Shown here in pieces: positions 3,712-51,564 of a stretch of 64,000 bases of DNA. The stretch covers positions 155,346-219,345 of the forward strand of contig DATHJY010000013.1 in NCBI GenBank assembly GCA_035489575.1. The letters run 5' to 3'. The notes beneath the pieces were generated by a model. It made no database searches. It worked only from the letters and a program-made list of their open reading frames with translations, and was not told the DNA's origin. Numbering within the stretch: the stretch's first letter is position 1; each line of letters opens with the position of its first letter. The position numbers and the translations under genes are program-made. Source of the DNA: Verrucomicrobiia bacterium (GTDB lineage: Bacteria; Patescibacteriota; Saccharimonadia; Saccharimonadales; JAGQNK01).

Positions 3712-5007
3712 ATGTCTGAAGCATTGCCACCTATCATAGAGCACCTAATCGACCAAGTCCCAGAGCACGAGGGCTACCCACGCCCACACGAACTACGCAC
3801 AAACCTAGAGAATCTCGAGACCAAGTATCGCGACGACCCAGACATCTGCGCCGAGTTTAGGGAGCATGTAGACAGCATGGGCCGGTTTTTTGAGGTGTTT
3901 GTTATTGAGTTAACCGACGCAGATCCCGATGCCGGCGTCTTATATATCAAGGACGACGTGCATTCAAACGAGCACGTCGCCAAGGGCACTATGGATCATC
4001 TGGCACCTCGCGTACTGGAAGAGCCCAAGTTCATGGTCCAGCTTGGCCTTAGGCAAATCATCTACTACGACGCAGAATCAGAAAGCGCCGAACGCAACGG
4101 GGACCAGGTATATCAAGGCCCACTGACCACCGAACTCTTCCTGCAGGGCAGCCACCGATCCATGACCAACATAGATTACAGCTACCACCTTGGGTCCCAG
4201 GCGCCCCCAGGCACAATGGCATCCATGAAAATCATGGAGTTCTACCAGCCTACCGTTTTCTTTCCCGGCCACTGCGCTGCCCTCAACGAAGGCGCCTACT
4301 GGCTGATGTCGCACGATATTCCACTGCTGAATGAGTGGCTGATCGCTCTCTCGGATCATGAAGGTATCCCCCGCACTTCGTATGGCAATACTGCCGCCGT
4401 GCTTGCTGACGGAATCTTTGCACGTCGATCGTCTGCCGAGGGCAAGATGTCTCACGAGTACCTCAAAAAAGTAGCGGGGCTCACTGCTTTGGCCGCATTA
4501 AGCGAGGGACCCTACTTGCTGTCTCAGGCCTCGGAGGCTGACACGCCGCCAGGTCAACGCCTAGATCAACTGGGTCATATGGAAGACCTTGTCAGTATTT
4601 ATCAAACCGTCAGAGACACTATAGCTTGCGACGACCTAGCACCAGAAACACAGCCACACTACGACGCGGTAGCAGGATGGCTAGCAGAAGTTGAGCCATA
4701 TCTTGCCGGTGTTACCAACAAGCCAATAGCAGAGCTACCCCAGCTTGATGCCTCTCTCAGACAGATGCTCTACTTTGCCGTCCCGCTTAACAGCGCCCGG
4801 CAAGTGGCCGAATTAAGTAACAAGCCAAAGTTGGCACGGCGAGCGAACGACAAGATCATCGAAATAGCTCAGGCAGTCGATGAAGGGCTGCAGCCTATCG
4901 GGCTCAGACCCCGTCAGCTCATAGCCCTACAGGTAGGCACCATTGCCGCTGCTGCACTAGCACAGAAGCAAGGACTGATTACCGCTGAGAATAATGTAGT
5001 GCTATGA
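3712..5007 (+). CDS. hypothetical protein
   Basis: Long ORF. I prefer ATG 3712 (MSEALPP) over the track start at 3625, which overlaps the upstream gene. Confidence 0.6.
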   Translation: MSEALPPIIEHLIDQVPEHEGYPRPHELRTNLENLETKYRDDPDICAEFREHVDSMGRFFEVFVIELTDADPDAGVLYIKDDVHSNEHVAKGTMDHLAPRVLEEPKFMVQLGLRQIIYYDAESESAERNGDQVYQGPLTTELFLQGSHRSMTNIDYSYHLGSQAPPGTMASMKIMEFYQPTVFFPGHCAALNEGAYWLMSHDIPLLNEWLIALSDHEGIPRTSYGNTAAVLADGIFARRSSAEGKMSHEYLKKVAGLTALAALSEGPYLLSQASEADTPPGQRLDQLGHMEDLVSIYQTVRDTIACDDLAPETQPHYDAVAGWLAEVEPYLAGVTNKPIAELPQLDASLRQMLYFAVPLNSARQVAELSNKPKLARRANDKIIEIAQAVDEGLQPIGLRPRQLIALQVGTIAAAALAQKQGLITAENNVVL

Positions 5008-18000: not shown

Positions 18001-18178
18001 ATCCGCCGACCTTTCAAAGGTTGTCTGCAACGTGCAGCCCGATCGCTGGGGAGCGATTTCTTATCTTGCGATTGGGAGTAAGGGCACATTCATCTGGATG
18101 CACTTATATCCAATCACAAGTTCACTTCTTAGAACTTAAGGTGCGTTGTCCCTTTGCAGGGTACTAACACAGTAATAT

Positions 18179-24240: not shown

Positions 24241-24277
24241 GCACGCGGACTTGCCACTATCTCCTCTCTATTTAATT

Positions 24278-24306
24278 TTGCAAAAATATAAAAAATGTGT
24301 TAAAGT
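24278..24306 (+). promoter_or_regulatory. sigma70-type promoter TTGCAA-17-TAAAGT
   Basis: -35 at 24278-24283, 17-nt spacer, -10 at 24301-24306. Upstream of ORF 24382-24603. Confidence 0.5.
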
Positions 24307-24381
24307 AACATAACTTCTACATCACCATTGTGTCGAAGATTCTTTGTCGGCAACAGAACAACAATCTCTCCGGAGGTAGCC

Positions 24382-24603
24382 GTGTCCTTTCAAGATCACT
24401 CCGTCCTAGTCCCTCACCTCCCTCTCAAGAAGAGAGAGATCCCCAGCGAGCCCGAAGACTGCGACGAGATCGCACGAATCGCCCAAGCCTTCTGGGAAGG
24501 AACTCTCGAGTGCCTTCCGAAGGGCTACACACCCAGCGAGTGGAGATCTGCAGTAACCCGCAAGCCTAACTGCTCCGCGATGATGCTGATCTACAACACC
24601 TGA
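24382..24603 (+). CDS. small hypothetical protein (island I4, moderately GC-rich)
   Basis: GTG 24382 is preceded by GGAGG (24372-24376) at 5-nt spacing and is in frame with track ORF 24328-24603. Confidence 0.5.
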   Translation: MSFQDHSVLVPHLPLKKREIPSEPEDCDEIARIAQAFWEGTLECLPKGYTPSEWRSAVTRKPNCSAMMLIYNT

Positions 24604-24625
24604 TCGCCCTACGCACGCCACCACC

Positions 24626-24724
24626 AAGATGCCACCGCCGCGCGTGGAACTCGGCCACCAGCCGAGCACCACGCGCCGGTGGCGCATCTTATCCGTGAGG
24701 AACTCCTGTTGTTTTTGTCTTTTA
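24626..24724 (+). terminator. large GC-rich hairpin plus T-rich tract
   Basis: 24626-24647 pairs imperfectly with 24669-24690 (~20 bp), with an inner hairpin ctcggc/gccgag, followed by tgttgtttttgtctttt. Confidence 0.55.
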
Positions 24725-24833
24725 CGTCCTAGAGCCGCCCGCATACTGGCACCCCGCTCCGTAAAACCCCCGTTGCCGACAAAAACACCTTATTATTCTG
24801 TGCGCAAAGGGGATACTTCTCAAGCTTAAGGTA

Positions 24834-24861
24834 TTGTATATTCTGATAAATATTGTAAAAT
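24834..24861 (+). promoter_or_regulatory. sigma70-type promoter TTGTAT-16-TAAAAT for island I5
   Basis: -35 at 24834-24839 and -10 at 24856-24861. Confidence 0.45.
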
Positions 24862-24867
24862 AGCTTG

Positions 24868-24907
24868 GTCATTCTGACATAGGTGCTAGGCCTACCCTAG
24901 AAGTGAA
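24868..24907 (+). promoter_or_regulatory. conserved leader element, copy A
   Basis: gtcattctgacat-aggtgctaggcctaccctagaagtgaa is nearly identical to 25969-26012. It contains the palindrome GTCAttcTGAC, the hairpin ctagg/cctag, and AAGUGAA. Confidence 0.6.
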
Positions 24908-24951
24908 CGCAGGGCCTCCCTGCAGTTTGCGCCGTTCCCTGAGGAGGGGAC

Positions 24952-25125
24952 ATGTTCAAGTTGTTCCTGTTCCTGGTTGTCATCGTCGTCACCGTCGTCA
25001 CCGTCTACGTGATGGCCAGCCTCCTGGCTGCGGTCGTCGCCGGGTTCATCCTGGTCGTCGGCACGCTGGCCTACCTGATCATCGGTGGCAAGCGCCTCGT
25101 CGAGAGCCAGACCCCGGCCAGCTAA
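24952..25125 (+). CDS. 57-aa hydrophobic peptide, 2 TM (high-GC island I5); not in ORF track (<60 aa)
   Basis: ATG 24952 is preceded by GAGGAGGGGA. Sequence: MFKLFLFLVVIVVTVVTVYVMASLLAAVVAGFILVVGTLAYLIIGGKRLVESQTPAS. The overlapping 155-aa Arg-rich track ORF is a frame artefact. Confidence 0.6.
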   Translation: MFKLFLFLVVIVVTVVTVYVMASLLAAVVAGFILVVGTLAYLIIGGKRLVESQTPAS

Positions 25126-25319
25126 CCAGCGCCGCCGACGCCCCCCTCACACCCCGGACCTCTTACCGAGAGGATAAGTTCCTGCCAAAGGGACAAAGAC
25201 GGACTCTGTGCCCCAGAGACCCTCCACCACACCCCAAGAGACCATACACTTTGTACCCGCGCTTTCATGCGTTGGCCCCACACAGTGCATTTGGTCTCTT
25301 TTTACATACTGGGTATATC

Positions 25320-25328
25320 TGTTATAGA
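25320..25328 (+). promoter_or_regulatory. extended -10 promoter TGtTATAGA for island I6
   Basis: TG at 25320-25321 and hexamer at 25323-25328. The palindrome-like GTCAATCCTGACA follows at 25337-25349. Confidence 0.4.
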
Positions 25329-25371
25329 ATGAATCGGTCAATCCTGACACCGCGCACCCCCAAGGAGTGAA

Positions 25372-25863
25372 GTGGAACTATTACTCAATGCCTCCATCGC
25401 CGAGGACTCCATCCAGGACGCCGTCCCCACCATCGACAACATCGTCAGTGGTGGCCTGACCAACGGCAGCGACAAGCTGTACATCGTTGCCGGCTTCCGC
25501 AACCCGGACGGTACGGGTGGCATCCTGACCACCTTCGCCTACGGCGACAGAAGGGGATGGAAGTACCCCATCGACGACATCGCCCTCGGCAAGTTCGACA
25601 TCTCCGCAGCCACCGGCTTGCCCTCGCGCCTGGTACAGACCCAGGAACCCGAGCGTCTTCGTGACGGCGACGTCAAGTACGGCGGCAGCTGGGTCCTGGG
25701 ATCCATCGTGGTCGCCGCCTCCGGGTTTCCGTCCTACTGGGACGAGCAGATCTGTGCCATCATCTGCCACATCATGAGGGGCCGGGTGCACGTGCTGCGC
25801 GAGCGCCTAGAGAAGGCAGCAGGCGAGGACGTCTACCTCGTGCGCTCCCGGCTGGCGGCCTAG
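25372..25863 (+). CDS. hypothetical protein, possibly GlcG/DUF336-like (high-GC island I6)
   Basis: GTG start with AAGGAG 4 nt upstream; 163 aa. YGGSWVLGSIVVAASGFPSYWDEQICAI weakly resembles DUF336 blocks. Confidence 0.6.
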   Translation: MELLLNASIAEDSIQDAVPTIDNIVSGGLTNGSDKLYIVAGFRNPDGTGGILTTFAYGDRRGWKYPIDDIALGKFDISAATGLPSRLVQTQEPERLRDGDVKYGGSWVLGSIVVAASGFPSYWDEQICAIICHIMRGRVHVLRERLEKAAGEDVYLVRSRLAA

Positions 25864-25875
25864 GGGTCACCGCTA

Positions 25876-25943
25876 AAGGGTTTGAGCTGGTTGCTTGCTA
25901 TGCGCATGATGCGTGCAAGCGACCAGCTCACCCTTGATTTTTT
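25876..25943 (+). terminator. rho-independent terminator after island I6
   Basis: 25876-25898 pairs with 25915-25935 (~21 bp, two mismatches), followed by gatttttt. Confidence 0.75.
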
Positions 25944-25970
25944 AATAGAAATGTGTTAGAGTAGTATAGT
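25942..25970 (+). promoter_or_regulatory. sigma70-type promoter TTAATA-17-TATAGT for island I7
   Basis: -35 at 25942-25947 and -10 at 25965-25970. Confidence 0.45.
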
Positions 25971-26012
25971 CATTCTGACATGATAGGTGCTAGGCCTCCC
26001 CCTAGAAGTGAA
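25969..26012 (+). promoter_or_regulatory. conserved leader element, copy B
   Basis: gtcattctgacatgataggtgctaggcctccccctagaagtgaa. See copy A. Confidence 0.6.
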
Positions 26013-26061
26013 GACAGAGGTAATTCTCTGACTTTGCGCTCTCCCCACAAAGGAGACTCTC

Positions 26062-26547
26062 GTGCAAGAAGCCAAGTGGGCTGCCATCGGAGCTGTCTGG
26101 GCCGCGATCGTCCTGATCGTGTCAATCGGCGGCGGCGGCGGCGGAGTGCTGATCGTCGGCATTTGTGTGCCGCTCATCATCTTCGGCATCGTCCGTCTTG
26201 TCAATCGGTTCCGCAACAAGCCCGCCGAGAAGAAGACACTGACACCGGATGACAGGCGACGCCACGTCCGCAAGGAAGACCAAGCCACAGTGGACGCCCT
26301 GATCGACGCCGTCCAGGAACGGATCGACGACTACACCACCTCGACAGTGCCCGACTGGGAGACCTCCTACTCGCTGGTCGACAACGCCAGCAAGCAAGTG
26401 CCGAGGGCAATCGTCGAGAACGTCAGGGTCCACTTCGAGGACAACGGCTGGGAGACCGGTATCAAAGACGACGAACTCGTCGTACGCGACCCAAAGAACG
26501 CGCCCAAGCCAGCCACCCCGCCGACTGCGCCGTCCACCACCAGCTAG
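26062..26547 (+). CDS. hypothetical membrane protein (high-GC island I7)
   Basis: GTG start with AAAGGAGA upstream. Two N-terminal TM segments around a GGGGGG tract, then a cytoplasmic domain and a Pro-rich C-terminus. Confidence 0.65.
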   Translation: MQEAKWAAIGAVWAAIVLIVSIGGGGGGVLIVGICVPLIIFGIVRLVNRFRNKPAEKKTLTPDDRRRHVRKEDQATVDALIDAVQERIDDYTTSTVPDWETSYSLVDNASKQVPRAIVENVRVHFEDNGWETGIKDDELVVRDPKNAPKPATPPTAPSTTS

Positions 26548-27041
26548 ACCAGCTCCGGCTGATCAACGCGAGACTAGGGGTGTCTAGGATTTATAAGTGC
26601 TCCCGCATCGGAGCTGCCTAGACACCCCACCGTGGGACCAAGACTTTTGCTTTGCCACGCTTTCAAGCGTTGCACCCCCAAGCAAATATCTCGGTCCCTC
26701 TTTCTTTTTTGGTTTATACTAAGGGGAGTCATGGGAGTACTTTCTGGCAGAACCTATCCCAGACCTCCAGTCCCGCCCCAAAACCACTCATTCCGGCGCC
26801 AATCCGCCCTGACTTTCCAGCCGTAACTATGGTTACGCCTGAAAAGACCAGAACGAATTGTCATCCGAAATGTATCGGTTTTGGCATCGGGAGCGAGATC
26901 TGACATAGGCTCTAAGAATTTCCACCCCCAGGCTCTATCAATTACCTTGTCTTCGTTCTTCTGGACGATGGCTCTAGCCAGCCTCACTGGCTTCAAACCT
27001 AACTCTTTTTTATAACCTTCTAGTCTCGAAAGGTAATTGAT

Positions 27042-30669: not shown

Positions 30670-30701
30670 TGGTAAGGCCATAGGGTGGTTAAGGTCGAAA
30701 C
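30670..30701 (-). repeat. ~31-nt repeat (copy 1) ending in ..ACCA, upstream of a terminator
   Basis: Minus strand: gtttcgaccttaaccaccctatggccttacca. Related to 32867-32897 and 33968-33998. Terminator hairpin at 30604-30626. Confidence 0.55.
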
Positions 30702-32822: not shown

Positions 32823-32866
32823 AAATAACCAAGAAAAATACCCCACACGAGGTGGGGTATTTTTCT

Positions 32867-32897
32867 TGGTGAACCATAGGGTGAGTAGGGTCGAAAC
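32867..32897 (-). repeat. ~31-nt repeat (copy 2)
   Basis: Minus strand: gtttcgaccctactcaccctatggttcacca, directly followed by terminator hairpin 32838-32860 plus a U-run. Confidence 0.55.
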
Positions 32898-32988
32898 GTT
32901 CTTCGGTGAGATGGAATATCTTGAACCAAGGCTGAAAGCACTCGAGGTATGATAAATGCATGAAGACGGGGTGCTACACACGCTGTGT

Positions 32989-33903
32989 CTAGCCTTCAAA
33001 AACATGAATTGGACCATTCGCTAACCATGCCTCAATATTGGCGATCATCATATCATTGCCAATTCTGCTGGTAGTAGTGCTGTATGAAGCGATGCATGGA
33101 GTGGCGAGCACTTTGGGATGCGTTTGTAATTTCAAATATAGTGGATTCGTGATGTCACCAGGCTTTGCATTCATAACATCAAAAGCTACTACAGCCAGCC
33201 TGTTGCTATCAAGCGCATCAAGCATTGCGTCAAAATCAACCGTAGCATCTACGGTTACAGAGATAAATGCGGCGCCGGTCTTGAGTGACTGAAAGAACCT
33301 CTGATCCAGTAATCCTTTGGTAGTAGGATTAGCACTGAGGGTATCTACGACTATGTCGGCATCCTTAACTTTTTCGACCAAAGTATCGCCTCGCTTAAAA
33401 TACTGTACATCCATATCCAAGGCCTTGCATACCGAGCCAACGCGCTTGCCGATATTGCCACAACCCAGAATTGTTATATTCTTATCGGCTAAGCCAGGCG
33501 AGCGAACAGGCGTTGGGGTAGTGGGTTCTTCTGTTGTATTTATATAGTGCATGAACTTGCGCGTAGTCTCGAGCACCATAAAAATGATCCATTCCGAAAC
33601 AGCATGACGATTACTGCCAGGGCTATTACAAAGGGTGATCTTTCTTGACGCGAGTATTTCCGAATCTGCAAAGCTACTCACCCCAACGAAAGGTACCGTG
33701 ACAAGCACATCACTTAGTCCGCTATAACTCTCTCGGAGCCCCGTTATTCCTGAACATACAACATCGAAGCCAGCGCAGCGCCTGAGCCATTCTTCTGGTG
33801 TTACTGCTATATCATCATAGAATGTCACAGTCCCCAAGCTGTTAAGCTTAGTCTTTTGTTCTTTTGACAAATCTAAAGGCTGAGTAACAACAATTTTCGT
33901 CAT
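32989..33903 (-). CDS. D-isomer-specific 2-hydroxyacid dehydrogenase family protein
   Basis: NAD-binding ILGCGNIGKRVG. ATG 33903 (MTKIVVTQPL) is preferred to the track start. Confidence 0.8.
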   Translation of the reverse strand: MTKIVVTQPLDLSKEQKTKLNSLGTVTFYDDIAVTPEEWLRRCAGFDVVCSGITGLRESYSGLSDVLVTVPFVGVSSFADSEILASRKITLCNSPGSNRHAVSEWIIFMVLETTRKFMHYINTTEEPTTPTPVRSPGLADKNITILGCGNIGKRVGSVCKALDMDVQYFKRGDTLVEKVKDADIVVDTLSANPTTKGLLDQRFFQSLKTGAAFISVTVDATVDFDAMLDALDSNRLAVVAFDVMNAKPGDITNPLYLKLQTHPKVLATPCIASYSTTTSRIGNDMMIANIEAWLANGPIHVFEG

Positions 33904-33967
33904 ACTGTCATGATAGCAATCGACGTAACAAATGAAAAAGCCCGAATTTGACGTTCGGGACTTTTCA

Positions 33968-33998
33968 TGGTGAATCATAGGGTGAGTAGGATCGAAAT
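33968..33998 (-). repeat. ~31-nt repeat (copy 3)
   Basis: Minus strand: atttcgatcctactcaccctatgattcacca, followed by terminator hairpin 33941-33959 plus a U-run. Confidence 0.55.
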
Positions 33999-34098
33999 CT
34001 TGCTTGACGATTTGGAGGAGATGGATTTAAAATTTGAAAGTATTAGGTATATAATAGTATACGAAGGTTTACATAGTACTTAGTCAGGAGAAATAGTT

Positions 34099-34959: not shown

Positions 34960-35015
34960 TACATAGTTCATCAACCATCCGACAGGACCGTTGTCCTTCA
35001 CAATTCGAGGTAACC

Positions 35016-43143: not shown

Positions 43144-43172
43144 TAGACTTATAAATAAAAAGATGGTATAGT
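43144..43172 (+). promoter_or_regulatory. sigma70-type promoter TAGACT-17-TATAGT for the PspA island
   Basis: -35 at 43144-43149 and -10 at 43167-43172. The leader motif GTCATCCGACAG lies at 43187-43198. Confidence 0.5.
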
Positions 43173-43231
43173 TTTCCGGTCTGATTGTCATCCGACAGTC
43201 ATCGAACATCCCAGAGAGAAGGTCAACACCG

Positions 43232-44023
43232 ATGTTGAAGCTCTTCCGCAAGTGGTGGAAGTACCTGACGGCCAAGCTGTCCTCGTCGTTCAGCGAGAAC
43301 GCGGACCCCAAGGTCCAGCTGGAACAGGCTCTCATCGAGGCCCAGGACCAGCAGCGGCGGCTGAAGGAGCAGGCGGCCAACGTCATCGCCCATCAGAAGC
43401 AGACCGAGATGCGGCTCAACCGCACCATGGACGAGCTCGAGAAGGTCAACACCAACGCCGTCCAGGCCGTCAAGATGGCCGATCAGGCTGCCGTGGCGGG
43501 TGACGAGGCCAGGGCGTCGCAGTACACCAACACCGCGCAGACCTTCGCCACCCGGCTGATCCAGCTCGAGAAGGAGGTCGCCGACCTCAAGACCATGCAG
43601 CTGCAGGCGACCGGCGCAGCCGACCAGGCCAAGAAGGCCGTCTCGCAGAACGCCATGGCCCTCCAGCAAAAGCTGGCCGAGCGTCAGAAGCTGCTGTCGC
43701 AGCTGGACCAGGCCAAGATGCAGGAAACCATGAACAAGGCCATGTCGTCGCTGTCCGAGACGGTCGGCCAAGACGTGCCCACGCTCAACGAGGTCCGCGA
43801 CAAGATCGAGGCGCGCTACGCCAAGGCCAAGGGCGCCGCCGAGCTCAACGCCGACTCCGTCGAGGTCCACATGCTCGAGGTCGAGGCCGCGACCATGGAC
43901 GCCGAAGCCACGACCCGTCTGGACGAGATCAAGGCCCAGCTCGGCATCGCGACCGCCCCGGTCACCGACGCCATCCCGGCGATCCCGGCGACCCAGCCGC
44001 AGGAAGCCGAGTCGGGCAACTAG
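43232..44023 (+). CDS. pspA: PspA/IM30-family protein (high-GC island I10)
   Basis: N-terminus MLKLFRKWWKYLTAKLSSSFSENADPKVQLEQALIEAQ with long coiled coils, typical of PspA/IM30. GC3-rich; the antisense 215-aa ORF is a shadow ORF. Confidence 0.85.
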   Translation: MLKLFRKWWKYLTAKLSSSFSENADPKVQLEQALIEAQDQQRRLKEQAANVIAHQKQTEMRLNRTMDELEKVNTNAVQAVKMADQAAVAGDEARASQYTNTAQTFATRLIQLEKEVADLKTMQLQATGAADQAKKAVSQNAMALQQKLAERQKLLSQLDQAKMQETMNKAMSSLSETVGQDVPTLNEVRDKIEARYAKAKGAAELNADSVEVHMLEVEAATMDAEATTRLDEIKAQLGIATAPVTDAIPAIPATQPQEAESGN

Positions 44024-47368: not shown

Positions 47369-47434
47369 CGCTTCTATGAATGTGCGATACCTTTCGCAAA
47401 ACTCATACTGATGAGTCCAAGAGGACGAAAAGCG
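47369..47434 (+). ncRNA. hammerhead ribozyme, type III (HHR-1)
   Basis: CGCUUC|UAUGA-AUG-UGCGA-UACCUU-UCGCA-AAAC-UCAUA-CUGAUGA-GUCC-AAGA-GGAC-GAAA-AGCG. Stem III is 5 bp (47369-73 with 47430-34), C17 is at 47374, and the G10.1-C11.1 pair is present. Confidence 0.9.
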
Positions 47435-47449
47435 AGTACAATTTGATAT

Positions 47450-47620
47450 ATGGAAACCAAAACAATGGTCTGGATTGGCCTAGGTGTCGGCAGTACCGTA
47501 GGGGGCTTGCTGGGTACCATGCTAGACCATGGAAACTTTCTAGGCCTGTGGTCACTAGCCCTTGGCACCCTGGGTTCACTTATAGGCATCTGGGCCGGTT
47601 TCAAACTGGCTAATATGTAA
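47450..47620 (+). CDS. 56-aa Gly-rich small membrane protein; not in ORF track
   Basis: METKTMVWIGLGVGSTVGGLLGTMLDHGNFLGLWSLALGTLGSLIGIWAGFKLANM. Backbone-like GC content; it starts 16 nt after HHR-1. Confidence 0.55.
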   Translation: METKTMVWIGLGVGSTVGGLLGTMLDHGNFLGLWSLALGTLGSLIGIWAGFKLANM

Positions 47621-49991: not shown

Positions 49992-50020
49992 TTGACTTTT
50001 AGCTAATTTTATACTATAAT
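49992..50020 (+). promoter_or_regulatory. consensus sigma70 promoter TTGACT-17-TATAAT for island I12
   Basis: -35 at 49992-49997 and -10 at 50015-50020. The leader hairpin GAGUG...CACUC follows. Confidence 0.65.
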
Positions 50021-50087
50021 ACACTTGAGTGATTTTCCACACTCGTCAAATGGAAATGGACCCCCAAGCACCCCTGGGAGAAACCCC

Positions 50088-50597
50088 ATGCTTTCCAATC
50101 GAACCCTCGGCCTCATGGCCGGCATCATCGTGACGCTCATCGGCATCACGCTCTGGCTCAGCTGGAACTTCGGCTACTGGAGCGACGACGGCCCGCGTGT
50201 CGACCACACCAGCCTGTTCCTGCCCAGCGCAATCTGCGGTACCCTCGGCATCATCGCCGCGGCCATCATCATGATCGCGACCATCTACGGCCCCAAGTCG
50301 GTGTACGGCAATCCCGGATTCGTCAAGCATCTCGCAAACGAGTGCGCTGGCTGGGGAGCTGTTGTCCTGATCCTGCCGTCCTTCATGGGCGCCCTCATGG
50401 CTGGGACCGACATCCCCAACAACGTGTCCAACGGTTCTGTCCCGTTCCACTGGGCCACCTTCGGCAGCTACTCCGGTAGCCTCCTCGCTGGCCTGCTGGT
50501 GACCAACCTGTTGCTGTCCCTGGTGCTGTACTTCTGGGCAGACCGGCCTGGTGACCTGACCATCGACAGCTGGCTGAGCCGAGTCGTCCAAGCCTGA
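50088..50597 (+). CDS. 169-aa 4-TM membrane protein (high-GC island I12)
   Basis: ATG 50088 is preceded by GGGAG, and the GC shift begins ~50060. The antisense 181-aa ORF is a shadow ORF. Confidence 0.7.
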   Translation: MLSNRTLGLMAGIIVTLIGITLWLSWNFGYWSDDGPRVDHTSLFLPSAICGTLGIIAAAIIMIATIYGPKSVYGNPGFVKHLANECAGWGAVVLILPSFMGALMAGTDIPNNVSNGSVPFHWATFGSYSGSLLAGLLVTNLLLSLVLYFWADRPGDLTIDSWLSRVVQA

Positions 50598-50657
50598 GGG
50601 CTGGCCCTAGGACAAGGCAACACGCCGCCGTGCATGATACCTGGAGGGTCCAGGACG

Positions 50658-50713
50658 TGAAGTGGTAGAGGTGATGGATCATCCATCGACAACCCCTCAT
50701 ACCTCCCACTTCA
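50658..50713 (+). repeat. 56-nt perfect direct repeat (copy 1), structured 3'-UTR element
   Basis: Identical to 51422-51477. Outer stem ugaagugg/ccacuuca encloses GAGGUGAUGGAU-C-AUCCAUC-(GACAACC bulge)-CCUC. Confidence 0.85.
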
Positions 50714-50720
50714 CGCCCAC

Positions 50721-50790
50721 ACAGTTTCTATGAATGTGCAGCCAACACTGCAAGAGTCATACTGATGAGTCCAAGAGGACGAAAAGCTGT
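50721..50790 (+). ncRNA. hammerhead ribozyme, type III (HHR-2)
   Basis: ACAGUUUC|UAUGA-AUG-UGCAG-CCAACA-CUGCA-AGAG-UCAUA-CUGAUGA-GUCC-AAGA-GGAC-GAAA-AGCUGU. Stem III is 7 bp including one G.U, C17 is at 50728, and the distal stem I covaries with HHR-1. Confidence 0.9.
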
Positions 50791-50809
50791 AAAACTTCTT
50801 TGACATTAG

Positions 50810-50818
50810 TGCTATAAT
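50810..50818 (+). promoter_or_regulatory. extended -10 promoter TGcTATAAT for island I13
   Basis: TG at 50810-11 and hexamer at 50813-18. The adjacent TTGACA (50800-05) is only 7 nt away, too close to serve as its -35. Confidence 0.5.
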
Positions 50819-50878
50819 ATTTTGCGAGTGATTCGTTTCTGCACTCACAAATAACCCTCGAGGCCTCTTGGAGGAATC

Positions 50879-51373
50879 ATGTTCAGCATGCTGACGTTCC
50901 GTCGCATGACACTCGCCACGCTCGGCTTGGGCGCGCTGCTTTTCCCGATCTGTTGGTTTGCCGCCTACGGAACCCAGGAATTGTCCAGGGCACCTCATGG
51001 TGACCTATTCAGCGCTGGCGTCATATCCGGCATTATCGGTGTGGTGATCGCCTACGTGCTCCTCATGGGCACCATCCATGTCGAAGATGCCGACTTCGGT
51101 GAAAGTCAGTTCCTGGGACACCTGATGGCAGCCTTCGGGATCGTCGCAGCTGTGCTGTTCGTGTTGGGCTGCATAATCGCCGGCTTCGTCTCCAGCTCCC
51201 CCGAAGGTGGTCCCATCGACACGGGCGTGTTCGGCACCATCGTCATCAGCCTACTCGCCAGCTACCTCACCACCTTTTTCGTCCTGGTGGGTGCGTTCGG
51301 CGACGAGACGTGGATCGGTGGCAAGAAGACTGACAACAACCTCTTCCGGGACGGTGTTATCAGCGGGCCCTAA
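50879..51373 (+). CDS. 164-aa 4-TM membrane protein (high-GC island I13)
   Basis: ATG preceded by GGAGG at 5-nt spacing. GC3-rich (63% GC in the first 60 nt by hand count). Confidence 0.7.
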   Translation: MFSMLTFRRMTLATLGLGALLFPICWFAAYGTQELSRAPHGDLFSAGVISGIIGVVIAYVLLMGTIHVEDADFGESQFLGHLMAAFGIVAAVLFVLGCIIAGFVSSSPEGGPIDTGVFGTIVISLLASYLTTFFVLVGAFGDETWIGGKKTDNNLFRDGVISGP

Positions 51374-51421
51374 GGCACACACTGGCCAACAGAGAGTTAC
51401 AAATCCTGGAGTACCAGGTCA

Positions 51422-51477
51422 TGAAGTGGTAGAGGTGATGGATCATCCATCGACAACCCCTCATACCTCCCACTTCA
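51422..51477 (+). repeat. 56-nt perfect direct repeat (copy 2)
   Basis: Identical to 50658-50713. Confidence 0.85.
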
Positions 51478-51483
51478 TGTCAC

Positions 51484-51533
51484 AGCTTCTACAAATGCGA
51501 TTTGTACTGATGAGTCCAAAAGGACGAAAAGCT
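51484..51533 (+). ncRNA. hammerhead ribozyme, type III (HHR-3)
   Basis: ACAGCUUC|UACAAAU-GCG-AUUUGUA-CUGAUGA-GUCC-AAAA-GGAC-GAAA-AGCU. Stem III is 5 bp and C17 is at 51489. Confidence 0.9.
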
Positions 51534-51564
51534 ATAGCCACAGAGGCAACAGAGAAGGAAATAG

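Follow-up and report, generated by a model that had tools for sequence, protein, structure and literature searches.

Two open reading frames (ORFs) in the 64-kb stretch of DNA considered here (hereafter, the window) are preceded by nearly the same sequence, which raises the question of what this shared sequence does, and whether it does so as DNA or as RNA. A first-pass annotation had offered either a common operator, bound by a repressor that co-regulates several genomic islands, or an RNA element common to several 5' untranslated regions.

Extent and distribution of the repeat

The near-identity reported for positions 24868-24907 and 25969-26012 holds up: their alignment contains 39 matching positions, a single substitution and two indels, one of 3 nt and the other of 1 nt. 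The repeat is longer than those intervals, however: through shared CAG and TTTGCGC blocks the similarity extends to position 24932 in the first copy and 26039 in the second. Copy A is accordingly taken as 24868-24932 and copy B as 25969-26039, both on the plus strand, the match spanning 65-71 nt. The copies lie 1.1 kb apart in a variable hotspot between a response regulator gene and the UmuD/UmuC genes; relatives hold different cassettes at this place.

A covariance model (R1) was built from copy B and its ortholog in the sister strain L007, copy A being left out. It scored copy A at 56.9 bits (E 9e-12 in the 64-kb window) and gave no other match in the window with E below 0.1; a model made from all three copies (R2) had the same outcome there. 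The ortholog of B, at L007:784-853, scores 99.4 bits. Known copies thus number three, two of which are close orthologs. Run with filters off over the window, seven related loci and the flanking contigs, the two models returned A, B and L007:784-853 only.

Searches further afield used blastn and both exact and degenerate patterns. Two patterns gave no match in a viral contig collection. A genome contig collection gave five matches, roughly as many as chance would produce; each of them sits in a coding or GC-rich context and is devoid of the second and third hairpins described below. In a metagenome contig collection the strict pattern had no match and the loose pattern 19, none of which scores as the element. 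Phage and plasmid collections yielded no relevant blastn match. Rfam 15 (4227 covariance models), applied to positions 24700-26200 with E up to 10, produced two irrelevant weak matches elsewhere in that interval and none on the element; over the whole window at gathering thresholds it reported two tRNAs only, and the window contains no rRNA gene. No relatives in other lineages were found in the collections searched, and the full element, present twice in the window and once in L007, appears to be lineage-restricted.

These results do not bear out the proposed co-regulation of several islands, in that the full element is confined to the three copies above and the motifs thought to link the islands occur at chance level. 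The CATCCGACAG 10-mer at 34976 and 43189 had been regarded as a relative; allowing at most one mismatch, it occurs 4 times in the window against 3.9 expected, and by our own estimate about 0.7 exact occurrences would be expected by chance in some 1.2 kb of island leaders, where two are seen. Nor could the hairpin-AAGTGAAC at 18120 be upheld as a relative, neither R1 nor the all-copy model detecting that leader. The hairpin-AAGUGAAC at 18120 was rejected as a family member: AAGTGAA occurs 6 times in the window against 7.65 expected, again chance level.

Promoters and the palindrome at the predicted start

The promoter read from the sequence upstream of copy A (24834-24861, plus strand) comprises a -35-like TTGTAT (24834-24839), a 16-nt spacer and the -10 hexamer TAAAAT (24856-24861). 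Its alignment with that of cassette B holds at every column; it is about 76% identical to this second promoter, which lies ahead of copy B and which has an extended -10 box, TGtTAGAGT (25954-25962, plus strand), kept in L007. A promoter scan suggested TATAGT (25965-25970) as an alternative -10 for B, which would put the start inside the first hairpin; TAGAGT is the better supported of the two, since it is kept in L007 whereas TATAGT reads CATAGT there. Both copies begin exactly 6 nt after their best -10 hexamer, in agreement with the initial estimate of 0-6 nt. Judging from this spacing, transcription of both cassettes would start at the G of GTCA or 1 nt before it.

The first 11 nt of either copy, GTCA-TTC-TGAC, form a palindrome (P1). 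Between the two cassettes lies an ORF for a soluble 163-aa protein with no family assigned (25372-25863, plus strand; 90% identical in L007), and the GTCAATCCTGACA reported in its leader at 25337-25349 is indeed present, 6 nt after a -10 hexamer TAGAAT (25325-25330, plus strand). As RNA it reads GUCA-AUCC-UGAC-A; nothing corresponding to the second and third hairpins follows it. This site is identical in the sister strain (L007:151-163). All three adjacent promoters therefore show a -10 box, 6 nt and then GTCA, the starts themselves being predicted ones, and by our calculation the eight specified bases would recur by chance at equal offset in the 163-aa promoter with a probability of about 5e-5 to 3e-4.

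This arrangement invites the view that P1 (R-GTCA-N3/4-TGACA, centred at about +6) serves as a DNA operator, with a repressor sitting over the start and co-regulating the genes for the 57-aa, 163-aa and 161-aa products. We hold this to be doubtful, though such an operator could coexist with an RNA role of the sequences downstream of P1. The part of the operator proposal that stands is the palindrome of 11-12 bp shared by three adjacent promoters; a full element linking several islands does not. In each of three consecutive promoters the 4+4 palindrome stands equally far from the -10 box, and the sister strain has it unchanged; as in operators of the LexA or TetR/GntR type, the inverted repeat lies a few bases past the start. 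Unlike these operators, however, it has half-sites of only 4 bp, beyond which the palindrome does not extend, and its spacer varies between 3 nt (GTCA-TTC-TGAC) and 4 nt (GTCA-ATCC-TGAC), a change that can be accommodated by a hairpin loop but seldom by a rigid dimer. SOS boxes have the form CTGT-N8-ACAG or CGAAC-N4-GTTCG, which P1 does not resemble. The motif is not enriched across the window, where GTCA-N3-5-TGAC occurs 5 times against 2.5 expected and 18% of shuffles reach 5; the only notable point is its clustering in the three adjacent promoters.

Pfam, moreover, makes no DNA-binding regulator evident beside the cluster: the neighbouring response regulator has no domain other than the receiver, and the S24 protein is UmuD-like with no evident DNA-binding domain. 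The 163-aa protein was considered as a possible regulator; Pfam finds nothing in it, its AlphaFold model is unusable (pLDDT 32) and an impression of a GlcG/HbpS-like fold is unsupported. An antisense match to the first 18 nt of the element (16/18), overlapping the beginning of a backbone gene (33899), is in an orientation that only a DNA site could use and would speak for an operator. It is borderline (E 0.04-0.14), however, and probably fortuitous because it includes the junction that varies among the true copies.

Predicted structure of the leader

The transcribed copies are predicted to fold into consecutive hairpins. Copy A consists of P1 (GUCA-UUC-UGAC, 24868-24878), the junction AUAGGUG (24879-24885), P2 (CUAGG-CCUAC-CCUAG, 24886-24900), two A residues and P3 (GUGAAC GCAGGG CCU CCCUGC A GUUUGC, 24903-24930). 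Its counterparts in copy B are P1 at 25969-25979, the junction AUGAUAGGUG at 25980-25989, P2 at 25990-26005, again AA, and P3 (GUGAAG A CAGAGG UAAU UCUCUG A CUUUGC) at 26008-26037. P1 has 4 bp, P2 is formed by CUAGG/CCUAG, and the 12-bp P3 has a conserved basal GUGAA/UUUGC helix with two tandem G.U pairs. Although the junction as a whole varies among the true copies, the single-stranded AUAGGUG between P1 and P2 is invariant.

A fourth hairpin follows in the minimum-free-energy folds of both leaders. P4 of A (GUUCCCU/AGGGGAC, 24934-24954) buries the Shine-Dalgarno sequence GAGGAGGGG, the ATG start codon (24952-24954) coming next; P4 of B (UCUCC/GGAGA, 26040-26064) buries AAGGAGA ahead of the GTG start codon (26062-26064). 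The Shine-Dalgarno is thus predicted to be paired in the terminal hairpin of both leaders by different sequences, UUCCCU/AGGGGA and UCUCC/GGAGA. On its own P4 has a folding energy of -9.6 kcal/mol in A and -4.7 kcal/mol in B, and P4 of B differs from that of L007 at 1 of 25 columns.

As an RNA hairpin P1 has very little stability (-0.8 kcal/mol, and -1.6 kcal/mol for its likeness in the 163-aa leader), a point in favour of the operator, and it is displaced in some minimum-free-energy folds, including that of copy A. The folds disclosed no mutually exclusive pairing of the kind that would join an aptamer to an expression platform, and no conserved multi-helix junction or pseudoknot; the hairpins look independent. 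A closing helix between the AGGUG junction and sequence 3' of P3 was dropped, as it is specific to copy A and not conserved.

Evidence for action at the RNA level

Several observations are consistent with the element acting as RNA. All 62 pair cells of the three copies hold standard pairs, 21 of 21 pairs being kept, and pairing falls to 33-53% when the partners are slid by 1-3 columns. Two pairs in P3 change on both sides, one from G-C to C-G, the other appearing as A-U, G-C and G-U. With three sequences this covariation is not statistically strong, as 125 of 500 shuffles reach the observed values. Differences between copies sit in loops, junctions and bulges. The sense strands fold at -23.3, -20.6 and -19.4 kcal/mol as compared with -19.9, -16.5 and -10.4 kcal/mol for the antisense strands, and an A-to-G change in L007 leaves a G.U pair in the sense strand, whereas the antisense strand acquires a C.A mismatch, G.U pairs working on the sense strand only. 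Folding z-scores are modest (-0.9 to -1.9).

The operator would leave the conservation of P3 and its compensatory change unexplained. P1 and P2 show no variation among the copies, so that they provide no evidence for structure over sequence, and recognition at the DNA level fits them equally well; the invariance of the P1 stem speaks for an operator. Of the two original suggestions, the shared RNA element of the 5' untranslated region is supported for the two full copies, by virtue of the pairing-compatible stem changes, the sense-strand bias and the placing of variation in loops and junctions.

Selection on the leader and divergence of the downstream ORFs

Similarity between neighbouring leaders could simply record their history, a recent tandem duplication or gene conversion that left no function beyond a promoter and a ribosome-binding site. 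The distance of 1.1 kb between the copies, their position in a variable hotspot and the mere three instances known all accord with such an origin, which we nevertheless regard as unlikely. The sequences flanking the identical blocks have diverged, the promoters being about 76% identical and the loops, P4 region and ORFs unalignable; because both flanks differ in this way between A and B, the identical blocks are not simply young. From promoter to start codon the window and L007 show 9 differences in 134 columns (6.7%), whereas 22-34% of four-fold degenerate sites (about 30%) differ between the same strains, and the terminator just upstream of the compared stretch is 43% different. Measured against a neutral divergence of about 30%, the value of 6.7% has a binomial P of 3e-11; being a comparison of orthologs, it lies beyond the reach of gene conversion within a genome. 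The substitutions that did occur in stems are, moreover, compensatory.

The promoter and leader are under purifying selection beside very fast-evolving ORFs. ORF B (26062-26547, plus strand) encodes a protein of 161 aa that has two transmembrane segments at its N terminus besides a C-terminal domain, and a search of 5.8 billion proteins found only ORF B itself. Its positional ortholog P0125 (154 aa), on a contig whose UmuC is 89% identical (11,015 bp, JGI sample 3300078620), shares 32% of its residues and has a 303-nt gap (3993-4295) upstream of it; for the positional ortholog of L007, which BLASTP fails to detect, a three-way alignment gives 20% identity. Amino-acid identity of the ORF that follows the leader is thus only 20-32% among genomes with UmuC proteins 89-94% identical. 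Neither the 161-aa nor the 163-aa ORF has homologs outside the lineage. ORF A (24952-25125, plus strand; GC3 0.95) encodes a 57-aa peptide with two transmembrane segments and no Pfam family. The statement that the two downstream ORFs are unrelated is correct insofar as BLASTP relates the 57-aa and 161-aa products at E = 43 only; both open with a two-transmembrane hairpin, however, and an old duplication is therefore possible. Cassettes A and B looked alike by eye in their 3' flanks as well, but blastn-short gave no significant similarity and the idea was discarded.

A second cassette pair in the window (50025 and 50879) repeats the theme: its members have in common 3' elements and a 5' hairpin placed 6-7 nt past the -10 box, and their ORFs are 28% identical. 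A conserved leader in front of divergent membrane-protein ORFs suggests that the proteins act at the surface or in interactions and undergo diversifying selection.

Comparison with known RNA elements

Pairing at the 5' terminus and Shine-Dalgarno-like "STAB-SD" sequences are both known to stabilise bacterial mRNAs, examples being the stem-loops of E. coli ompA and papA and of B. subtilis aprE, and the STAB-SD of B. thuringiensis cryIIIA; B. subtilis RppH requires at least two unpaired 5' nucleotides (PMC3997798). The hairpin described here resembles the terminal stem-loops in beginning 0-1 nt from the predicted 5' end but, with 4 bp and -0.8 kcal/mol, is far weaker than the stable helices of that class. 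Being barely stable and displaced in some folds, P1 makes a poor classical 5' stabiliser. P2 and P3, which are conserved, have no counterpart in ompA, papA, aprE or cryIIIA. The leader does have the sequence features of a putative STAB-SD: AGGUG is invariant in the three copies, lies unpaired in the P1-P2 junction at about +14 from the predicted start, and is followed by 15 nt containing no ATG, GTG or TTG.

Translational riboswitches, protein-binding leaders and RNA thermometers, all of which hide the Shine-Dalgarno sequence, likewise have a conserved structured domain 5' of the sequestering hairpin, and the conserved junction nucleotides and retained tandem G.U pairs are reminiscent of recognition sites. 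They differ from the present leader in that here no alternative-pairing switch was found, the genes encode orphan membrane proteins in a single lineage, and no Rfam family applies. The same differences bear on a ligand-sensing riboswitch with P1-P3 as aptamer and P4 as translational expression platform. The compact domain of several hairpins with invariant junction nucleotides, the Shine-Dalgarno-burying hairpin that follows it in both paralogs and the strong purifying selection on the leader would all be in keeping with a riboswitch. The hairpins look independent, however, and no pairing was found in which aptamer and platform exclude each other; the genes that follow the leader are fast-evolving orphans rather than transport or metabolic genes united by a ligand-related function; and the element is found in one narrow lineage, with no Rfam match at E up to 10. 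We judge a riboswitch to be quite improbable.

Less credible still are cassettes of the type I toxin-antitoxin kind, in which the mRNA for a hydrophobic peptide is silenced by its folded leader under the control of an antisense RNA. As in hok, tisB and aapA1, a folded leader buries the Shine-Dalgarno sequence and possibly the start codon; in each of the three leaders the junction downstream of P1 is able to pair around the start codon (a post hoc reading of the folds); one product, the two-transmembrane peptide of ORF A, is hydrophobic and shorter than 60 aa; and the locus adjoins an SOS-type umuDC pair. Against this, only ORF A encodes a peptide of the expected sort, ORF B specifying a protein of 161-173 aa with a soluble domain. 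There is no conserved antisense promoter in either leader (a 9/12 match on the minus strand at A is absent at B), and no candidate antitoxin RNA was found.

Two further classes were rejected. The element has no ribozyme match at E up to 10, which disposes of a self-cleaving ribozyme, be it a hammerhead (CUGAUGA ... GAAA core) or one of another class. True hammerheads were detected elsewhere in the window (E 5e-7). In integron attC sites an imperfect hairpin lies between an R'' (RYYYAAC) and an R' (GTTRRRY) core; at its base P3 has AGTGAAC...GTTTGCG in copy A and AGTGAAG...CTTTGCG in copy B, and neither copy fits this consensus.

Proposed mode of action and implications

Taken together, these data lead us to favour, with some reserve, a tandemly duplicated module of promoter and structured 5' untranslated leader, of a known general kind, that acts on the mRNA and is held by selection in front of fast-evolving ORFs. 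From the sequence comparisons we infer both the RNA-level function of the leader and its mechanism, be it stabilisation or translational gating. The element would serve as the untranslated 5' leader in the transcripts of a tandemly duplicated pair of expression cassettes, in each of which a promoter and the leader precede a small membrane-protein ORF with its terminator. Within the mRNA, the initial 65-71 nt would fold into three consecutive hairpins, P1, P2 and P3, after which P4 would bury the Shine-Dalgarno sequence. The module would act after transcription: the 5'-proximal structure, possibly together with the Shine-Dalgarno-like AGGUG, may shield the mRNA at its 5' terminus, and P2-P3, in combination with P4, may set or gate the access of ribosomes, the gating probably involving a trans-acting factor that reads the invariant sequence blocks.

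A bolder version of this scheme, which we advance only tentatively, makes the leader a lineage-specific and previously undescribed regulatory RNA in which a dedicated trans-acting factor docks on AUAGGUG, the P2 stem and the GUGAA/UUUGC helix and thereby switches on the translation of hyper-variable membrane-anchored proteins. Equally tentatively, the leader would then be a constant control handle while the effector ORFs diversify in an arms race, in an uncultivated and probably Patescibacteria-like host, and leader and terminator, being conserved, might double as homology arms when cassettes are exchanged.

The immediate significance of the module that we favour is modest, because it is known from three sequences and belongs to a familiar general kind, the structured 5' untranslated region with a sequestered Shine-Dalgarno. 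The pattern is nonetheless unusual, promoter, leader and terminator scaffolds being nearly constant between strains while the membrane proteins that they serve are only 20-32% identical. If the interpretation is correct, the element would be a candidate cis-regulatory RNA in a lineage about whose post-transcriptional control almost nothing is known, and its leader of some 90 nt would offer a compact handle on how such cassettes get switched on.

A leader shared by two neighbouring cassettes

Near-identity between 24868-24907 and 25969-26012, noted in the first-pass annotation, holds at 39 identical positions, with one substitution and two small indels. These segments precede a 57-aa ORF (ORF A, 24952-25125) and a 161-aa membrane-protein ORF (ORF B, 26062-26547). 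The likeness extends up to 24932 and 26039, taking in a CAG and a TTTGCGC block that are both conserved, so that the common unit measures 65-71 nt (copies A and B). When a covariance model was trained on copy B and its ortholog in the sister-strain locus L007 (L007:784-853, 99.4 bits; UmuC 94% identical) alone, it recovered copy A with a score of 56.9 bits (E 9e-12) and returned no other match with E < 0.1 in the 64-kb window; a second model including copy A gave the same outcome there. A borderline match at 33899-33968 (+; E 0.04-0.14), where GTCATACTGTCATGATAG agrees with the first nucleotides of copy B at 16 of 18 positions, overlaps, in antisense orientation, the start codon of a minus-strand backbone gene and is probably due to chance. 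Additional copies were found neither in seven related loci or the contigs flanking the window, nor in GTDB species genomes, JGI metagenomes, viral contigs, or phage and plasmid collections, and Rfam yielded no match to the leader.

Copies A and B adjoin their promoters as originally described, each starting exactly 6 nt past the best -10 hexamer (TAAAAT at 24856-24861 for copy A; extended -10 TGtTAGAGT at 25954-25962 for copy B). The palindrome GTCAATCCTGACA at 25337-25349, in the leader of the intervening 163-aa ORF (25372-25863), likewise lies 6 nt past a -10 box (TAGAAT, 25325-25330), and an identical GTCAATCCTGACA leader is found 5' of the 163-aa ortholog in L007. The calculated probability of finding the eight specified bases at equal offset by chance is ~5e-5 to 3e-4; this motif, the first hairpin (P1) of the leader, does reach beyond the two cassettes, into the promoter between them. 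The wider claim of an element shared by several islands (high-GC3 ORFs) was not sustained: AAGTGAA occurs six times vs 7.65 expected, CATCCGACAG with at most one mismatch four times vs 3.9, GTCA-N3-5-TGAC in the whole window five times vs 2.5, and the leader at 18120 was missed by both covariance models. A common 5'-UTR element is supported for these neighbouring cassettes.

The CATCCGACAG 10-mer is a portion of the leader hairpin of a PspA/IM30 island (leader 43164-43201, ORF 43232-44023; extended -10 TGgTATAGT). This perfect 8-bp hairpin, UGAUUGUC-AUCC-GACAGUCA (-9.4 kcal/mol), lies 2-4 nt past the predicted start and has its AUCC loop in common with the P1-like hairpin at 25337. A hairpin occurs within a few nt of the predicted start in seven of eight island leaders examined, which is only suggestive, short hairpins being frequent by chance.

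Predicted structure of the leader

Folding gave both leaders an equal architecture: P1 (GUCA-UUC-UGAC, -0.8 kcal/mol); an invariant, single-stranded junction, AUAGGUG; P2 (CUAGG-loop-CCUAG, about -4 kcal/mol); an AA linker; P3 (-11 to -14 kcal/mol), whose base, with two tandem G.U pairs, joins GUGAA(C/G) with (G/C)UUUGC and whose inner stem is CAG(G/A)G / C(C/U)CUG; and P4, which pairs the Shine-Dalgarno sequence (UUCCCU/AGGGGA, -9.6 kcal/mol in copy A; UCUCC/GGAGA, -4.7 kcal/mol in copy B). The conserved AAGUGAA of the first-pass annotation is therefore one strand of P3, and the conserved UUUGC block its partner.

When the three copies are aligned with their structure taken into account, every one of the 62 pair cells holds a standard pair, and pairing falls to only 33-53% when partners are slid by 1-3 columns. 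Two P3 pairs changed on both sides (G-C to C-G; A-U, G-C and G-U), and the remaining differences are confined to the junction, the loop of P2, the bulge and loop of P3, and the 3' tail. The sense fold is the stronger in all three copies, most clearly in L007 (-19.4 vs -10.4 kcal/mol for antisense), where an A-to-G change gives G.U on the sense strand and a mismatch on the antisense strand. With three sequences the covariation is statistically not decisive (125 of 500 shuffles match it), and folding z-scores are modest. In all three leaders the junction could pair with the start-codon region, a post hoc observation of little weight.

P1 and P2 show zero variation across the copies. It is possible that P1 acts as a DNA-level operator over the start site, its hairpin being too weak to convince, although the half-sites are only 4 bp and their spacing is unequal (3 nt vs 4 nt). 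Because changes in the stems preserve pairs, the remaining variation falls outside them and the bias is towards the sense strand, comparison of the copies favours a transcribed, structured RNA.

A frozen control region and fast-evolving ORFs

Across three flanking genes, 22-34% of four-fold degenerate sites differ between the window and L007, as do 43% of positions in the terminator directly 5' of promoter B. From promoter B through the start codon, only 9 of 134 columns differ (P 3e-11); directly past the start codon the sequences are unalignable, and BLASTP yielded no alignment of the 161-aa ORF with its 173-aa counterpart in L007. An exhaustive HMMER search retrieved P0125, a 154-aa protein 32% identical to ORF B and equivalently placed on a contig with an 89%-identical UmuC. 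Since P0125 bridges both ORFs in a three-way alignment, where all have two transmembrane segments at the N-terminus and share the C-terminal motif GW...DYFVL...P, the three are, as judged from these alignments, extremely fast-evolving positional orthologs behind a frozen control region. Amino-acid identity among them (26062-26547; L007:876-1397; P0125, JGI 3300078620 contig, 4296-4760) is 20-32%, that of UmuC 89-94%, and that of the promoter, leader and terminator flanks about 93-95% at the nucleotide level. These membrane proteins are candidates for strong diversifying selection.

Histidine kinase, response regulator, variable cassettes, UmuD-like protein and UmuC follow in conserved order, with cassette content varying among relatives. 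The gap between response regulator and UmuD-like/UmuC genes (24241-27041; loci L007-L013) is a variable hotspot: three cassettes in this genome, an additional 138-aa cassette in L007, three other small ORFs in L008, none in L009-L011, and a transposase in L012 and L013. Promoter A is separated from the response-regulator gene by some 600 nt (24241-24833) devoid of a convincing ORF (a 73-aa gene is called there in one assembly); these may be what is left of a cassette. On the 3' side of UmuC, relatives have genes for defence or toxins (SduA_C, HEPN, Fic, PIN, BrnT). The closest UmuC homologs are labelled Patescibacteria or Limnocylindria; the NCBI MAG that includes the 163-aa ORF, from an uncultivated bacterium, is labelled Verrucomicrobiae, at odds with the backbone genes, whose relatives are Patescibacteria-like. 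About a dozen ORFs in the window have GC3 of 0.72-0.99 amid a ~50% GC backbone. Those inspected follow AT-rich consensus or extended -10 promoters, and very large protein collections yielded no homologs of those that were checked.

A second cassette pair and other repeats

The cassettes at 50025 and 50879 parallel copies A and B, sharing a 5' hairpin (GAGUG...CACUC) 6-7 nt past the -10 box, a 64-nt 3' hairpin and candidate hammerhead ribozymes. Their ORFs (50025-50597 and 50879-51373) are multi-transmembrane paralogs, 28% identical (BLASTP E 4e-10). In this second leader family (50015-50044 and 50810-50846), TATAAT or extended -10 TGcTATAAT is followed after 6-7 nt by the GAGUGAUU...CACUC hairpin. 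The 64-nt repeat (50650-50713 and 51414-51477, 97% identical), a long hairpin GAAGUGG..GAGGU...ACCUC..CCACUUC, lies in the 3' regions of the paralogs, directly 5' of two hammerheads.

Three type III hammerhead candidates (47393-47436, 50715-50792 and 51482-51535, + strand) have a stem I hairpin beside the CUGAUGA-GUCC..GGAC-GAAA core and differ in stem III by compensatory changes (CGCU/AGCG, AGUU/AGCU, AGCU/AGCU); the best scores 42.3 bits with Rfam Hammerhead_3 (E 5e-7), short of the gathering score, 48.5. Two lie 3' of island ORFs, just before the next promoter, and by this location may set the 3' ends of mRNAs. The third, at 47393, lies 5' of a small ORF starting at 47453.

Another unit, a terminator-like hairpin followed by TGGTGAAYCATAGGGTGRKTARGRTCGAAA, recurs at 30678-30701, 32833-32915 and 33934-34016; over 83 nt, identity between the two long copies is 71%, and the third is partial. 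Rfam gave no hit to this unit at E up to 1, and it may be a tRNA-3'-end-like or att-like remnant.

A possible mode of action

The best-supported reading of the leader is a tandemly duplicated promoter and 5'-UTR module acting on mRNA. The fixed geometry would place the first paired base at the predicted +1 or +2; pairing at the 5' terminus blocks 5'-end-dependent decay, and B. subtilis RppH depends on two or more nucleotides being unpaired (PMC3997798). No start codon lies downstream of the invariant unpaired AGGUG, which agrees with the sequence definition of a STAB-SD-type element. P4 would bury the real Shine-Dalgarno sequence of both paralogs. That the junction, P2 and the wobble-containing base of P3 do not vary in sequence suggests that a trans-acting factor would recognise them; no such partner was found. 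Wherever comparison with the defining features of a riboswitch, type I toxin system, ribozyme or attC site gave a clear answer, the leader failed.

By analogy, the leader would function like 5' stabilisers and Shine-Dalgarno-sequestering translational control elements; it belongs to no RNA family described in Rfam. With three sequences only and no partner found, its significance is modest: it is a candidate for a new, lineage-restricted cis-regulatory RNA of the familiar structured-leader type.
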